From an uncultured archaeon (GTDB lineage: Archaea; Thermoproteota; Bathyarchaeia; 40CM-2-53-6; CALIRQ01), in NCBI GenBank assembly GCA_938042195.1, contig CALIRQ010000006.1, positions 46,868 to 110,867 on the forward strand: 64,000 nt of DNA, written 5' to 3'. A program made the position numbers and the translations under genes. The notes beneath the pieces are model-generated. The model saw only the letters and a program-made list of their open reading frames with translations. It had not been told where the DNA came from and ran no database searches. Below are positions 13,431-39,294 of the stretch, one piece after another. Positions within the stretch are counted from its first letter, which is position 1; the number at the start of each line of letters is the position of its first letter.

Positions 13431-13564
13431 TGGCGGGCCCGCCGGGAATTGAACCCGGGGCCACCGGGTCTCTCCCCGGGGGTAAAAGCTTCGCCGGCGC
13501 CCCGCGACGCCACCGGTGCTCTACCTGGCTGAGCTACACGGCTCCTTTGGGAGCTTACGGGCCC
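13431..13564 (-). tRNA. tRNA-Lys(UUU) with three introns (9/10, 30/31, 37/38)
   Basis: Removing 13555-13535 (21 nt), 13512-13490 (23 nt) and 13482-13470 (13 nt) leaves a 77-nt cloverleaf: GGGCCCG UA GCUC AGCCAGGUA GAGC A CCGGG CUUUUAA CCCGG UGGCC CCGGG UUCAAUU CCCGG CGGGCCC G CCA. Each junction forms a BHB-like fold. Confidence 0.9.
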
Positions 13565-15691: not shown

Positions 15692-15816
15692 GCCCTGGTA
15701 GTATAGAGGTATTAAAGATACCGTAAAACCCGGCCTAGTATGTGCGGCTGTCGCCCGCACGACGCGGGTTCAAATCCCGCCCAAAAGGGACCATAATCCC
15801 TTGGCGAGGGGCGCCA
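15692..15816 (+). tRNA. tRNA-Asp(GUC) with two introns (15/16 and 68/69)
   Basis: Removing 15707-15728 (22 nt) and 15784-15808 (25 nt) gives a 78-nt cloverleaf: GCCCUGG UA GUAU AGCCCGGCCUA GUAU G UGCGG CUGUCGC CCGCA CGAC GCGGG UUCAAAU CCCGC CCAGGGC G CCA. Confidence 0.9.
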
Positions 15817-19178: not shown

Positions 19179-20120
19179 TCATATCCGAGCGGGGATCTTG
19201 ATGCCGACCTTGCCCATGAGTTGCACGATTTGAACCAATCGCTCCACTATTCCATCCGGTATGAAGCGCATTACGAGGATTAGGGAGGCCCCCAAGATTA
19301 TGAGGTATACGTATGGGAAAGAGACCCAAAGCACCTCCATTAACAAGGTGAATACGAAGCCCCCTATTATCGGGCCCATGACGGTCCCTATGCCCCCGAA
19401 GACGGCCGAAACGATCATCATGAGGGCCAAGGTGCTATCGAAGGCCGAATACGGATCGATGTATGTCACGAACCAAGCGAAGCAGCCCCCGGCCACTCCA
19501 GCGAAGAAGGCGCTTATCGCGAAGGCCAAGATCTTATATTTGGTGGAATTTATCCCATAGGTCTCCGCCGCCGTTTCGTCGTCCCTTATCGCGAAGAGGG
19601 CATATCCCATGGAGCTGCGCTTTATGGCATAAGCGATCGCCGTCACCGCCAATAAGGTCAAAAGTATCGCGTAATAGAATTCTCGGAGTGCGTAACGGGG
19701 CGGGAGTATGAGGCCGTTCCCACCGCCGGTCAGCCACTCTTCGTTAATGGCGATCACCTTGAGGATCTCCGCCATCACCAGCGAGGATATCGCGAAATAC
19801 GGCCCCTTTATCCTCAATAGGATTAGGCCCAGGAATACGGCCGCCAAGAAAGACGCGAGGCCGCCTAAGACCGATGCCAAGTAGGCATCGAATGAAAGCT
19901 TCGTCACCAATATCCCGACCGCATAAGCGCCTATTCCGAAGAACATATAATGGCCAAAGCTCCAGTAACCGCTATACCCCGATATGATGTTCCAAGACTG
20001 GGCGAGGGCCGTGTACATGAATATGATGGCCAACAGGTTTATGTAGTATCCCTTCTCCACGATCGGCGGAATTAGGAAAAGCGTTAAGGCCAAGGCGATG
20101 AGCATCAAAGAGCGCTTCAT
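19179..20120 (-). CDS. livM: Branched-chain amino acid-type ABC permease (LivM-like)
   Basis: WNIISGYSGYWSFGH, GPYFAISSL, AIRDDETAAETYGI, GGIGTVMGP. Confidence 0.9.
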   Translation of the reverse strand: MKRSLMLIALALTLFLIPPIVEKGYYINLLAIIFMYTALAQSWNIISGYSGYWSFGHYMFFGIGAYAVGILVTKLSFDAYLASVLGGLASFLAAVFLGLILLRIKGPYFAISSLVMAEILKVIAINEEWLTGGGNGLILPPRYALREFYYAILLTLLAVTAIAYAIKRSSMGYALFAIRDDETAAETYGINSTKYKILAFAISAFFAGVAGGCFAWFVTYIDPYSAFDSTLALMMIVSAVFGGIGTVMGPIIGGFVFTLLMEVLWVSFPYVYLIILGASLILVMRFIPDGIVERLVQIVQLMGKVGIKIPARI

Positions 20121-20166
20121 CGCGCCCTCCCTCCCAACCGCCAAGCCGAGCTTGGGCATTGAGCCT

Positions 20167-34663: not shown

Positions 34664-35401
34664 ATGGACCCGAAGAGCAGCTCGAGGCTGGCGGACCTGA
34701 AGTATAAGCTGATGACGGTCGAGCTCCTCAACCTAGCCAAGAATTACTATACCTACCGCGAGCTATCCCAGCTCACCGAGCTGCCGGAAACGGTCCTGAG
34801 CAGATATGTGAAGGGCCACGTGATGCCCACCATAGAAAGGGCCAGGAAGCTGAACAGGATCTTGGAGAAGAACCTGAGGCTGGAGGTGGAGCTCCAGAAG
34901 AGGATAAAGATGGATGATTATGGATTCTTCGATAATACCAAGATCATCTCCGATACCCTCCTCCTCGATAGGGCCGTCAACTGGGCCATCAATAGGTTCG
35001 CGGGAAAGCGGGTAACGAAGGTCCTCAGCGCCGCCGTCGACGGGATACCATTGGCCACCCTGCTGGCCCATAGGCTCGGGGTTGGCCTAGTAATAGCCAA
35101 GAAGGCGAAGGAGGTGGGCATAAAGGAGTTCATAGAGGAGGTTTACATCCCCTCTAAAGCCGCCATAATGGTCAGCCTATACATCCCCAGGGATGCCATA
35201 AAAAGGGGCGATGCCGTTCTGATAGCGGATGACGTCATCGATAGCGGCGAAACCCAAAGGGCCCTCATCAGGATGATCCATAAGGCCAAGGCGGAGGTGA
35301 GCGGCATCTTCTCCCTGATAGCCATAGGGGATGAATGGAGGAAGGGCATAGAGGAGGAGGTCAAATGCCCCATAGAGGTCGTGCTCACCATCAAGAAATG
35401 A
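34664..35401 (+). CDS. HTH-containing phosphoribosyltransferase-like protein (archaeal PurR/Apt-like regulator)
   Basis: N-terminal HTH ([23 protein letters not shown]) plus PRPP-binding loop [13 protein letters not shown]. Confidence 0.8.
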
Positions 35402-36450
35402 ATCGGGCGAGGCCGGCCAGATCCCAAGGTTCGTAAACGCCCCTATCTGTTATTATAGCGCTTATCAGGTCCGGCGGCGTCAAATCGAAGGCCGGGTTGA
35501 GGGCGCCGACGCCCTTCGGGGCTATGCGGCGGCCGGCGAAGCTCAGGACCTCCTCCGGGTCCCTCTCCTCGATCGCTACCTCCTCGGGCTTGGAGGAGAA
35601 ATCGAACGTCGATAGCGGCGCGGCCACGTAGAACGGGATGGAGAACCTCTTAGCGGCTATCGCCAAGCCCAAGGTCCCTATCTTGTTGGCGACATGGCCC
35701 GTCGCAAGGACCCTATCGGCGCCGACGATCGCCTTGGAAACGAGGCCCTTGCTCATCAAATGCGCGGCCATCCCATCAGTTATCAAGGTCACCGGTATGC
35801 CGCCCCGGCTCAGCTCGAAGGCCGTTAGCCTAGCGCCTTGGAGGAGTGGCCTCGTCTCGGTGGCTATGACCTCGATCCGCTTCCCGGCCTCAACGGCGGC
35901 CCTTATCACGCCCAAGGCCGTCCCATAGCCGGCGGTGGCCAGGGCCCCCGCATTCCGCTGGCCCTCGGGGCCAATTGCAGTGCGTTAGGACCCTATCGCC
36001 ATCCTCCAGCAGGGCGGCCCCGAATGCCCCGAGCCTCCTATTCGCCTCCATATCCTCCTCGGCTATCCGCTTCGCCTCCTCCACGACGGCTCCAACGATA
36101 TCGCCCGGGCCCGCCTCCCTCGCCTTCGATAGGATCCTGGAGATGGCCCATTGAAGATTGGCGCCGGTCGGCCTCGTGGCCCTCAAGGCCTCAGCGGCCC
36201 TTTCAAGATCGGATAGGATCCTCTCGCCCTTCCCCTTGGATCTGAGGGCCGCGAGAGCCATCCCGGCCGCGGCCGCAACCCCGATCGCCGGCGCGCCCCT
36301 AACCGCCATGTCCCTTATCGCCTCAGCCACATCGCGAGGAGTCCTGCAACGGATGCGGCGCAACCTCCAAGGCAGGGCCCTTTGATCTATTATGACGACC
36401 TCCCTGCCCCTTAGCTCGACCGGTCTTAGGTCAAATGCCCTCGATCCCAA
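35391..36450 (-). CDS. mtnA: S-methyl-5-thioribose-1-phosphate isomerase (MtnA / eIF-2B family), interrupted by a 22-nt intron
   Basis: Exon 1 (36450-35975) encodes [24 protein letters not shown] and LTHC-N. Exon 2 (35952-35391) encodes [36 protein letters not shown] and NPAFDLTP. Joined length is 1038 nt = 345 aa + stop. Start is TTG 36450 or ATG 36465. The ORF track shows two ORFs in different frames. Confidence 0.88.
35953..35974 (-). other. Putative pre-mRNA BHB/BHL intron in mtnA (UUGGCCCCGAGGGCCAGCGGAA)
   Basis: Fold: CUGC / AA|U bulge / UGGCCC-CGA-GGGCCA hairpin / GCGG / AA|U, closed by CGC/GCG. Excision at the two AA|U sites restores frame and the THCNAG motif. Confidence 0.85.
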
Positions 36451-36483
36451 AGCGGAACCTCCCATTGTTGAGCGGTCCGATCG

Positions 36484-36568
36484 CGATAAAAACCTTGGCC
36501 CAAGATCCGGTTCGGATGTTTGGGGAACGAATCGCTTAAGCGGAAGCGGCGATCGAATGGTTAAATAT
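36484..36568. promoter_or_regulatory. Back-to-back TATA-like boxes between mtnA and the splicing endonuclease gene
   Basis: TTTTAT on the minus strand (about 36486-36491) and TTAAATAT on the plus strand (36561-36568), each roughly 25-40 nt upstream of a start codon. Confidence 0.5.
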
Positions 36569-36592
36569 GACTTGGGATGAGGTAGGGCGGCC

Positions 36593-37105
36593 TTGGAAGG
36601 GGAAGCCCAAAGGTTCGATGGCCGCATCCGCGGGAGGGCGGCGGTGATACCTAACGGCGGGGCCATAGGGGAGCTCAGGGAGAGGGGGTTCGGTGAGCCG
36701 AGGAATGGCGATCTCATACTCTCCCCGTACGAGGCGTTCTACCTCATCGAGAAGGGAAAGCTCAGGATATTGGATCCTAAGGGGGGAAGGGAGCTATCGC
36801 TCGAGGAGATCGTCGGGAGGCTATCGAGGGGCAGGGCCGAGGTTTGGCTGAAGTATTTGGTCTTCAAGGACCTCAGGGATCGCGGCTACATAGTGAGGGA
36901 CTTCAAGGGGATGAACTTGGAGGTCTATGGGAAGGGGCCCCAGAGGAGGATCGCGAGGATCATTTACGAGGGCGGGGAGGCGAGCTTGGATGAGCTCAGG
37001 AGGGCGCTCAGGGCATCAGCGAGGGCCGGAAGGGAGCTCATATTGGCGGTCGTGGATAGGAGGACCGACATAGTGTATTATTCCCTGGGCGAGCTGAAGC
37101 TGTGA
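36593..37105 (+). CDS. endA: tRNA splicing endonuclease, structural (beta) subunit
   Basis: LSPYEAFYLIEKG, KYLVFKDLRDRGYIV and LILAVVDRRTDIVYYSL (L10 loop/beta9). The catalytic Tyr position is kept (LEVY), but there is no His after it and the catalytic Lys segment reads RAGRE. Confidence 0.87.
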   Translation: MEGEAQRFDGRIRGRAAVIPNGGAIGELRERGFGEPRNGDLILSPYEAFYLIEKGKLRILDPKGGRELSLEEIVGRLSRGRAEVWLKYLVFKDLRDRGYIVRDFKGMNLEVYGKGPQRRIARIIYEGGEASLDELRRALRASARAGRELILAVVDRRTDIVYYSLGELKL

Positions 37106-37117
37106 GGGGCCGAGGGG

Positions 37118-38437
37118 TTGACGAGGTTCGCGGTTCCGAGGGGAATGAGGGACCTATGGCCCGAGGATTGGGCCAAGATGGATTGGATGGGGAGGAGGAT
37201 ACTCGACGTCCTGATTGGCTATGGCTTCAAGCCCGTTGAGCCCTCGAAGATCGAGCTGTTGGAGACTCTGGAGGCGAAGAGCGGCCCATCGATAAAGGAG
37301 GAGATCTATTGGTTCGAGGACAAGGCCGGCAGGCCCTTGGGCCTTAGGTTCGATCTCACGGTGGGGCTGGCCCGAATGGTCGCCGGGAGGCCCGACCTCC
37401 CATTGCCGGCCAAGTTCTGCGCGATATCGGATATGTGGCGCTACGATGAGCCCCAATTCGCCAGGTATAGGCATTTTTGGCAATGGGATGCGGAGATCTT
37501 CGGATCCGAGCTCGCTGAGGCGGATGCGGAGGTCATCTCGGCTGGGATCGATGTCCTAAGGGCCGTTGGGATAGTGAACTTCGAGGTGAGGATAAGCGAT
37601 AGGAAGCTGGCCGAGGGGTTCCTGAGGGGGATGGGCATCGGGGATCCAGCGCGGCTCGGGGAGGCCATAAGGATCTTGGATAAGCGAGGGAAGCTATCCC
37701 GAGGGGAGTTCCTAGGGGAGCTGAGGTCCCTCGGCCTAGACGATAGGCAGATCGAGGGGATATTGGATTTCGTCTCCATAAAGGCGCCCCTGGAGGAGGG
37801 GCTGAGCAGGGCGAGGGGCTTGGGCCTCGAGCGCGGTATGGCCGAGGAGGGGTTGAAGGAGCTCGAGGGCTTGGCCGATGCCCTGAGGGGCTTCGGGATC
37901 GGCCAAGAGGCCGTCTTGGACCTGAGCGTGGTGAGGGGATTGGATTATTACGACGGCATCGTATTCGAGGCTTATGATCGGGGCGGGGAGGATATAGGCG
38001 CCATCTTCGGGGGCGGGAGATACGATGGGCTCTGCGGCATTTACGGGCGGAATGTCCCCGGGACCGGATTGGCCGGCGGGATGGAGCGCATGATGCTCTC
38101 CTTAGAGCGCTCGGCCCTCTTCCCGAAGCTCAGGAGCGGGCCGCTAGTCTTCGTGGCATCCGCCAACGAGGCCGTTAGGAAGGAGGCGATCCGGATGGCC
38201 CAAAGGCTCAGGGCTAAGGGGATACCCGCTGAGTTCGATCTGAAGGGGAGGTCCCTCAGGGGCCAGATGGAGTATGCGGCCGGATCGGGCATGCCCTACG
38301 CCTTGATAATTGGGCCCAGGGAATTGGAGAAGGGGGTAGTTAAGTTGAGGGATTTGGGCGCGAGGTCCGAGGAGGAGCTGAGCGCGGAGGATTGCCTCAA
38401 GAAGCTCTCGGACTTAGCCAGATCCTTCGCCCGCTGA
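37118..38437 (+). CDS. hisS: Histidyl-tRNA synthetase
   Basis: PRGMRD, LRFDLT, WRYDEPQFARYRHFWQ, RGLDYYDG, GGGRYDGL, anticodon-binding domain. Confidence 0.96.
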   Translation: MTRFAVPRGMRDLWPEDWAKMDWMGRRILDVLIGYGFKPVEPSKIELLETLEAKSGPSIKEEIYWFEDKAGRPLGLRFDLTVGLARMVAGRPDLPLPAKFCAISDMWRYDEPQFARYRHFWQWDAEIFGSELAEADAEVISAGIDVLRAVGIVNFEVRISDRKLAEGFLRGMGIGDPARLGEAIRILDKRGKLSRGEFLGELRSLGLDDRQIEGILDFVSIKAPLEEGLSRARGLGLERGMAEEGLKELEGLADALRGFGIGQEAVLDLSVVRGLDYYDGIVFEAYDRGGEDIGAIFGGGRYDGLCGIYGRNVPGTGLAGGMERMMLSLERSALFPKLRSGPLVFVASANEAVRKEAIRMAQRLRAKGIPAEFDLKGRSLRGQMEYAAGSGMPYALIIGPRELEKGVVKLRDLGARSEEELSAEDCLKKLSDLARSFAR

Positions 38438-38526
38438 GCCTTCGGGCAAGGCCCATGGGATTATCCCTCAGGCCTCTCCAATCCCGATAATATTAAATAG
38501 GCGGGTTTTCCCTTCCAACGTTCAAG

Positions 38527-38624
38527 GCATCCGGGGGAGCTGGGGGAACCCGGCTGAGAGGGTGGCAGATCCGCCACCGACCCTTGGAACCTGATCCGGG
38601 TAATGCCGGCGAAGGGAGGGATGC
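38527..38624 (+). promoter_or_regulatory. TPP (THI-box) riboswitch
   Basis: P1 GCAUCC/GGAUGC; conserved GCUGAGA, GACCC, GAACCUGAUC and GGGUAAUGCCGGCGAAGGGA; TATA-like ATTAAATA about 30 nt upstream; directly upstream of thiW. Confidence 0.93.
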
Positions 38625-38724
38625 GGTGGATGGGCTATCCGCCGAAGCCCAGCCGAGCGCTGGGGCTCCTTCTCCGATCCGGATCCGTTCCCCCGGGTGC
38701 ATCGAAGCTCGGAGGTGAATGCAT

Positions 38725-39294
38725 ATGAAGGCTGGCGAAAGGGGGTTGACCCTGAATTTGATCCTCGCGGCTTGCCTAACGGCCTTGGGGGTGGCCATAG
38801 CGCCCTTCTTCTATTTCCCGTTTCTGGGAACGAGGGCTTTCCCAGGGCAGCATTTGATCAACGCGCTAACGGGCGTCATCCTCGGGCCTTGGTGGGGCGC
38901 CCTGGTCGCCGTCCTGATAGGCATCGTTAGGAACCTGCTCGGCGTGGGGACCATATTCGCCTTCCCGGGCGGGATCCCCGGCGCCATCGTGGTCGGCTTG
39001 GCCTATGGGGCAATGCGGCGCTTCAAGGGGAGGCGCTTCCGCTACGCGGCGGCCCTGTTCGAGCCCCTTGGGACCGTTCTGATAGGAGCGACTTTCTCGC
39101 TCTTCTTGGTTGCGCCCATAATAGGCTGGAGGCCCCTCTTGAGCTTGATTGAGGGATTGGGCCCGCTCCCAGCGCTCCTAACGCTCTGGTTCGGCTGGTC
39201 GATAAGCTCCGTGACCGGCAGCGCGATGGGCTATATTGTCCTCCTAATCCTTGATAGGGTGGGCCTCATGGGCAAATTGTCCAAATCGCCTTGA
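38725..39294 (+). CDS. thiW: ECF-type thiazole/thiamine precursor transporter S component ThiW
   Basis: TRAFPGQHLINAL, LGVGTIFAFPGGIPGA, EPLGT; fully hydrophobic. Confidence 0.9.
   Translation: MKAGERGLTLNLILAACLTALGVAIAPFFYFPFLGTRAFPGQHLINALTGVILGPWWGALVAVLIGIVRNLLGVGTIFAFPGGIPGAIVVGLAYGAMRRFKGRRFRYAAALFEPLGTVLIGATFSLFLVAPIIGWRPLLSLIEGLGPLPALLTLWFGWSISSVTGSAMGYIVLLILDRVGLMGKLSKSP

Follow-up and report, generated by a model that had tools for sequence, protein, structure and literature searches.

Within the coding region of a gene, introns of the bulge-helix-bulge (BHB) type have been described in the openly searchable literature for cbf5 only, to which one case in a 5' untranslated region (5' UTR) can be added (PMC7714728, PMC2738675). 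The cbf5 intron was found in Crenarchaeota (Watanabe 2002; Yokobori 2009, PMC2738675). The DNA analyzed here is a stretch of 64,000 nucleotides (referred to below as the window) from contig CALIRQ010000006.1 of an uncultured archaeon, the closest database relatives of which carry the label Candidatus Bathyarchaeia. Its mtnA gene, encoding a methionine-salvage isomerase, is interrupted by a 22-nt insert with the features of a BHB intron, and mtnA appears to be a new, second protein-coding host gene for such introns. The similarities to cbf5 are extensive: a short BHB intron inside the coding region, a patchy distribution among related lineages (gain and loss), restoration of the reading frame by splicing, and hosts with a hetero-oligomeric splicing endonuclease (by analogy in the case of mtnA). 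The two systems nevertheless differ in several respects. Cbf5 is an RNA-modification enzyme, whereas MtnA is a metabolic enzyme; the mtnA introns belong to Bathyarchaeia, are 22-41 nt long and have splicing that is deduced from sequence comparison; and mtnA adjoins the gene for a probable endonuclease subunit, called endB here.

Three other systems provide useful points of comparison. The 5'-UTR intron is that of HVO_1309 (PMC7714728), which, like the mtnA intron, makes an mRNA a substrate of the endonuclease, outside the world of tRNA and rRNA; the HVO_1309 intron leaves the coding region uninterrupted and was shown experimentally, whereas that of mtnA is known from sequence comparison. In Haloferax volcanii, endA and trpS1 form an operon (PMC7714728) in which, as in the endB-hisS pair of the window, an endonuclease gene runs into an aminoacyl-tRNA synthetase gene; other traits that would be shared are a leaderless endonuclease mRNA and a synthetase that can also be expressed independently. 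The Haloferax operon combines a catalytic endA with trpS, the cognate tRNA of which has an intron, whereas the Bathyarchaeia combine a non-catalytic paralogue with hisS, often with another gene in between. The EndA-like beta subunit of M. kandleri (5x89; PMC5829648) and the beta subunit of A. pernix (3ajv_A) resemble EndB in being separate polypeptides with N- and C-terminal domains that lack the catalytic His and Lys; judging by alignment, the C-terminal strand and an acidic loop similar to L10 may be common to them as well. EndB differs from them in keeping the catalytic Tyr, and most of its homologues in Bathyarchaeia also keep the Lys; in sequence, EndB is not detectably nearer to the beta subunits of Crenarchaeota than to alpha subunits.

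The window contains two minus-strand open reading frames (ORFs), 35391-35915 and 35890-36717, which do not share a frame and correspond to the C-terminal and N-terminal parts, respectively, of the Pfam family IF-2B. Removal of the 22-nt insert (feature coordinates are collected in Table 1) joins the two halves into a product of 350 amino acids with the family motif THCNAGALAT. This spliced product is MtnA, because it passes the cutoff of the TIGR00512 salvage_mtnA model (395 bits, cutoff 279; 437 bits on NF004326) and stays under those for the rival ribose-1,5-bisphosphate isomerase and aIF-2B; its N-terminus is kept in one of the two closest relatives (L002; surveyed loci carry L numbers). 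The minus strand reads ...ACG CAC UGC AA, followed by the 22 nt UUGGCCCCGAGGGCCAGCGGAA and then by U GCG GGG GCC..., such that exon 2 opens with the U that finishes the Asn codon AAU and the intron follows the second base of this codon in THCN^AG (the caret marks the splice position), the active-site motif of MtnA. An AAU repeat allows the intron borders to be moved by up to 3 nt with no change in the product.

The minimum free energy (MFE) fold of a 66-nt region around the insert (-36.6 kcal/mol, z = -3.3) combines an outer helix (CGCA/UGCG) with a second one of 4 bp (CUGC/GCGG) and an inner hairpin (UGGCCC-CGA-GGGCCA), in the strand order of pre-tRNA BHB motifs. The 5' bulge is AAU; that on the 3' side comprises the two nucleotides AA in the MFE fold, and would become AAU on opening of the A-U closing pair. 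A BHB motif is defined by two opposite 3-nt bulges, a 4-bp helix and flanking helices; the mtnA fold has this architecture, with a predicted 3' bulge of 2 nt, and is nearly canonical. The appeal made in the preliminary description of this DNA to endonucleases accepting relaxed motifs is, thus, unneeded. The same BHB structure was predicted independently by RNAalifold.

Comparative evidence makes it credible that the insert is a BHB intron. Inserts at the same codon were detected in 13 loci from the Genome Taxonomy Database (GTDB) and in two metagenome loci, with lengths of 22, 23, 28, 29, 32 and 41 nt, none of which is divisible by three. In a 14-sequence alignment, 94.6% of the pair cells hold standard pairs (27-41% with slid partner columns), both sides have changed in six of the seven inner-helix pairs, and none of 500 shuffles reached the observed covariation score. 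Excision at AA^U ... AA^U also gives an intact product in all 14 homologues. The exon edge ACG-CAC-TGY-AA^U is present in all 14 intron-bearing genes and in only 6 of 62 intronless ones, and the synonymous sites of the Thr-His-Cys-Asn codons (35975-35985 and 35946-35952 of the minus strand in the window) are frozen in all 14 but free to vary in the 62 genes lacking the intron, the BHB helices constraining the exon sequence. The first intron codon is a stop in 8 of the 14 genes, and in five the Asn codon is present only after splicing. These two properties rule out decoding by programmed frameshifting, which would, together with a pseudogene or an assembly error, be the alternative to an intron. 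Gene callers do split mtnA into two IF-2B ORFs and no RNA evidence of splicing was found, no run covering mtnA, but inserts of 22-41 nt interrupt the same codon in 15 independent assemblies, both halves of the gene are intact and conserved (88-97% of the amino acids are identical in the nearest relatives) and the same BHB is always formed, with compensatory changes. We therefore regard a non-intron origin as extremely unlikely.

The effect of the intron on annotation can be seen in L081 (4799-5858), a Logan contig of ERR9287632 identical in sequence to the window, in which gene calling divides mtnA into IF-2B genes of 174 and 186 amino acids; intron-bearing mtnA genes will thus be mis-annotated in databases. 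Breaks of another kind, away from the intron site, were noticed in two relatives: hisS is in frame-shifted pieces in L038 and L014, and L038 also has a break in mtnA, at residue 217; the most likely cause is assembly indels, these metagenome-assembled genomes being derived from long reads. A home-made scan combining BHB prediction with ORF joining re-found the mtnA intron and gave no second convincing case of a coding-region intron in the window; its other output consisted of operon junctions and noise (e.g. livH/livM, 20070-20131), and it is too unspecific for mtnA to be called the sole intron-bearing gene.

The intron-bearing mtnA and endB are divergently transcribed, and the preliminary description suggested that this adjacency may couple the endonuclease to its mRNA substrate, an idea to be refuted, in its own terms, by the same adjacency in relatives with an intronless mtnA and no co-variation in expression. 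A scan with the EndB alignment, covering one genome per GTDB species, yielded 80 loci, 79 of which were informative. In 77 of these 79 loci, mtnA lies directly upstream of endB on the opposite strand, usually with an aprt-like gene behind it and hisS downstream of endB. The intron is present in 13 of the 77 head-to-head pairs and absent from 62, the other two being cut by contig ends; the most divergent loci (L075, L077 and L079, with EndB 35% identical) have the pair and lack the intron. With 62 intronless relatives sharing the arrangement, synteny does not support the proposed coupling of enzyme and substrate through adjacency. The aprt-like gene, mtnA, endB and hisS are syntenic in 64-76 of the 80 loci (the aprt-like gene is beside mtnA in 64), whereas the other genes of the window recur in 0-3 of these endB-centred loci, leaving the block as an island of conserved order. 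Since the block is kept while its flanks are not, aprt-mtnA-endB-hisS seems to be an old, conserved unit. The preliminary description had also allowed for coincidence: this does not account for the adjacency, given this contrast between block and flanks, but it is a possible explanation for the landing of the intron in mtnA.

The right-hand part of the block is less uniform. In 35 related loci, hisS begins no more than about 100 nt after endB, whereas others have an inserted gene for a DUF5518 membrane protein (many intronless lineages, including L005) or an insertion sequence between the two genes (L009, Table 1); an endB-hisS operon is therefore not universal. A scan of JGI metagenomes centred on mtnA gave 80 loci, 14 of which have an EndA-like gene beside mtnA, head-to-head in six cases and co-directional in eight, with the EndA-like gene directly after mtnA. 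The eight co-directional loci (L085, L087, L088, L091, L094, L117, L120 and L140) are all intronless; in L091 the mtnA and EndA-like ORFs overlap by 16 nt and are followed by hisS. The EndA-like proteins of these loci constitute a second subfamily (GFGxGxDFRxYERG...AxYL), without the catalytic His, and belong to clusters named Bathyarchaeia at NCBI. The mtnA-endB linkage has, thus, outlived an inversion of mtnA.

In the window, the spacer between the two genes is 127 bp long and, as the preliminary description stated, holds two opposed TATA-like boxes, one for each gene. The box on the mtnA side, ATAAAAA (TTTTTAT on the mtnA strand), occupies positions 36486-36492, 21-27 nt before the ATG of mtnA, and that on the endB side, TTAAATAT, positions 36561-36568, 25-32 nt upstream of the endB start codon, TTG. 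At least two such A/T runs occur in about 6% of random 127-nt windows drawn from the window sequence. Both the TTG and the box preceding it are kept in the two closest relatives, L001 and L002 (GGTTAAATATGA...GGCGGCCTTG), and no conserved operator was seen in the spacer besides the promoter-like boxes in this comparison. The boxes fit archaeal TATA boxes, and the transcripts of mtnA and endB are probably leaderless or nearly so; promoter use and transcription start sites would follow from this placement of the boxes. Spacer lengths are alike in intron-bearing and intronless loci, but are approximate, the starts of the relatives having been taken as the most upstream ATG, a crude rule that misses the window's own start.

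A functional coupling could be proposed on the basis of this layout: the head-to-head arrangement may have been kept for co-regulation through the spacer, or the splicing of mtnA may report splicing capacity to methionine salvage. In addition to the shared spacer with its opposed boxes, this idea is favoured by the obligatory dependence of MtnA synthesis on splicing, by the preservation of the block relative to its flanks, which makes selection on the neighbourhood plausible, and by the low a priori chance of an intron landing next to endB. We nevertheless consider it unlikely, because the 62 intronless relatives, and also the most deeply branching loci, have the identical arrangement, because mtnA is inverted in other lineages and shares no spacer with endB there, and because the intron-bearing loci do not stand out by spacer length and no conserved operator was seen besides the promoter-like boxes.

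EndB itself is a 170-residue protein that matches the N-terminal (tRNA_int_endo_N, PF02778, 46 bits) and C-terminal (tRNA_int_endo, PF01974, 50 bits) domains of the archaeal endonuclease. In the catalytic enzyme of M. jannaschii (1a79), taken as the reference, the triad is Y115/H125/K156, Y115 being the Tyr of FRLY; the His belongs to a Tyr/His/Lys triad conserved in archaeal EndA (PMC5829648). Y112 of EndB aligns with Tyr115, whereas His125 has no counterpart, the loop being six residues shorter, and Lys156 is replaced by R147, in accordance with the preliminary description of a subunit without the catalytic His and Lys. The catalytic His is absent from all 21 aligned EndB homologues from Bathyarchaeia, which have no conserved His at any other position either, and from the co-directional subfamily; the Lys is kept by most members of the family and is an Arg in the clade of the window. 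The 21-member alignment contains three invariant segments, GKG..RR, YEGGEAS and LILAVVDRRTDIVYY, the second of which aligns with the PEDSS loop of M. jannaschii (the acidic L10), and the third with the C-terminal strand, both assigned by alignment only. An AlphaFold model of EndB (predicted local distance difference test score, pLDDT, 84) has a template modelling (TM) score of 0.77 to 1a79 and of 0.70 to 3ajv_A, the beta subunit of A. pernix; its scores to the two-domain folds of M. jannaschii, S. tokodaii, M. kandleri and both A. pernix subunits lie between 0.70 and 0.78, and its best sequence match in the PDB is 5x89 (8.5e-25). EndB is presumed, from these sequence features, to be a non-catalytic, structural (beta-like) subunit.

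A profile of the EndB proteins of Bathyarchaeia detected 471 cluster representatives at E <= 1e-10, and most of the single-unit proteins among them lack the catalytic His; two-unit proteins match the profile best through their N-terminal, non-catalytic unit. Full-length non-catalytic paralogues of EndA are, thus, widespread.

Enzymes of (alpha-beta)2 architecture are the rule in TACK lineages (PMC5829648), and broad substrate specificity stems from a loop in the alpha subunit rather than from the possession of a beta subunit (PMC5829648). By analogy, EndB would be expected to assemble with a catalytic alpha partner encoded elsewhere. No candidate for this partner was detected in the 64-kb window with a hidden Markov model (HMM) of the beta family searched against all ORFs, the sole extra match being on the strand antisense to the EF-1alpha gene, nor, with the same model, in the 10-kb flanks of endB in the 80 loci, no whole-genome search having been made. 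When 1.84 billion representatives were searched with a profile, most of the matches were non-catalytic paralogues; the few proteins with the His came from Methanococci, Theionarchaea, Woesearchaeota, Thermococci and similar groups; no His-bearing EndA labelled Bathyarchaeia was present among the named matches listed. It could be argued on these grounds that EndB is not a passive beta subunit, but either the sole endonuclease subunit, active without its His, or a paralogue with a role other than splicing, tied to MtnA and to histidyl-tRNA synthetase (HisRS). The retention of the Tyr, and of the Lys in most of the family, the invariance of the family-specific motifs GKG..RR and YEGGEAS and the failure to find an alpha subunit are compatible with this proposal, and a role outside splicing would explain why the block was kept through an inversion. 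However, the triad His is absent from every family member and the clade of the window lacks the Lys as well, the position of YEGGEAS at the subunit-contact L10 loop and the invariant C-terminal strand fit a structural subunit, and the (alpha-beta)2 rule of TACK lineages stands beside an alpha-subunit negative that does not come from a whole genome. We find such an active or diverted EndB very unlikely.

Two Rfam tRNA matches in the window (15696-15783, plus strand; 13434-13543, minus strand) were not called by ARAGORN. In one of them (anticodon GUC), 27 extra nucleotides interrupt the D-loop region, a position that is not canonical; the other is mismatched in its acceptor stem and carries an insertion of 45 nt around the anticodon loop. 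The two matches are probably tRNA genes with introns, and the long insertions imply that this organism relies on the removal of introns, its splicing system being in use.

The best explanation for these observations, and one in which we have good confidence, combines a class-wide ancient block, an adjacency independent of the intron and a BHB intron cut with the participation of a beta-like EndB. The block made up of the aprt-like gene, mtnA, endB and hisS would be ancient across Bathyarchaeia, with mtnA and endB transcribed divergently, each from its own TATA-like box, and endB running on into hisS. The mtnA gene of some lineages would have acquired or retained a short BHB intron, placed between the second and third bases of the Asn codon in THCN^AG. 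The splicing endonuclease, composed of a catalytic subunit and the beta-like EndB, would cut the pre-mRNA at the two bulges, and an RtcB-type ligase would rejoin the exons; full-length MtnA would be made from spliced RNA only, unspliced RNA leading to a frameshift or a stop. The mtnA-endB neighbourhood would be older than the intron or at least independent of it, and would therefore not be an adaptation coupling the enzyme to its mRNA substrate.

Several points weigh against this explanation. No RNA runs matching the window or L013 were found, and the one metatranscriptome matching L006 covers hisS only, so that the splicing of the mtnA pre-mRNA is something that we infer from sequence comparison. 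The alpha subunit was not found, and the heteromeric model accordingly rests on analogy. In a neighbour-joining tree of HisS and EndB, intronless clades separate the intron-bearing genomes into two groups; this tree is too coarse to tell one intron gain with losses from two gains. Conservation of the block as strong as this, which has withstood an inversion, could stem from a hidden functional tie of MtnA to EndB. Finally, if mtnA were the sole intron-bearing protein gene, its location beside endB would be an unlikely coincidence, of about one in several hundred genes. These last two considerations lead to a further alternative, in which the block is under selection owing to a functional connection of MtnA with EndB and the intron was then retained in some lineages because it lay beside endB, local and coupled expression ensuring its splicing or turning the output of MtnA into a read-out of splicing capacity; we judge this highly improbable.

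The genes surrounding the intron were identified as indicated in Table 1. The aprt-like gene and mtnA are convergent and overlap by 11 nt at their 3' ends; the aprt-like protein, nominally an adenine phosphoribosyltransferase, has an N-terminal helix-turn-helix (HTH) domain and may be a PurR-like regulator instead of, or besides, an enzyme. On the other side, the stop codon of endB is separated by 12 nt from the start of hisS, and the two genes are probably co-transcribed in this genome. The divergence of mtnA and endB and the direct continuation of endB into hisS had both been recognized in the preliminary description. Further downstream, a thiamine pyrophosphate (TPP) riboswitch (Rfam RF00059, 71.7 bits; 38523-38635, plus strand) is located directly 5' of a gene for the thiamine-precursor transporter ThiW (38719-39294, plus strand), constituting an archaeal TPP riboswitch-transporter pair.

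Table 1. Features of the mtnA-endB neighbourhood in the window, with the genes lying between endB and hisS in two relatives (positions of the latter refer to their own loci).
Feature	Positions	Strand	Evidence or remarks
aprt-like gene (HTH + phosphoribosyltransferase)	34664..35401	+	NCBIfam NF006328, 269.7 bits (cutoff 184); Pfam HTH_3 and Pribosyltran
mtnA exon 2	35391..35952	-	Codons 164-350 and stop; IF-2B profile 121-280; splice reconstruction
Entire BHB motif (predicted)	35949..35984	-	MFE fold, RNAalifold, covariation
mtnA intron (predicted), 22 nt	35953..35974	-	Excision brings back the frame and the THCNAG motif
mtnA exon 1	35975..36465	-	ATG at 36465; codons 1-163 and two bases of Asn164; IF-2B profile 2-115
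Divergent intergenic spacer, 127 bp	36466..36592	.	One TATA-like box per gene
endB (EndA-fold gene), 170 aa	36593..37105	+	Pfam PF02778 and PF01974
hisS (histidine-tRNA ligase)	37118..38437	+	TIGR00442, 336.6 bits (cutoff 286.75)
DUF5518 membrane-protein gene, L005	10493-11062	-	Between endB and hisS; many intronless lineages
DUF5518 gene, L009	10486-11088	-	Between endB and hisS
DDE transposase gene, L009	11092-12063	+	Between endB and hisS

The survey of relatives carries a caution, in that an attractive story of an enzyme encoded beside its own substrate dissolves once the neighbouring lineages are considered. What remains is the puzzle of a deeply conserved neighbourhood bringing together a methionine-salvage isomerase, a non-catalytic paralogue of the splicing endonuclease and HisRS. 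The BHB motif of mtnA is a compact candidate substrate of 36 nt. With what appears to be a second host gene, in a different and environmentally abundant lineage, the splicing of mRNA by the tRNA endonuclease would be no crenarchaeal oddity.

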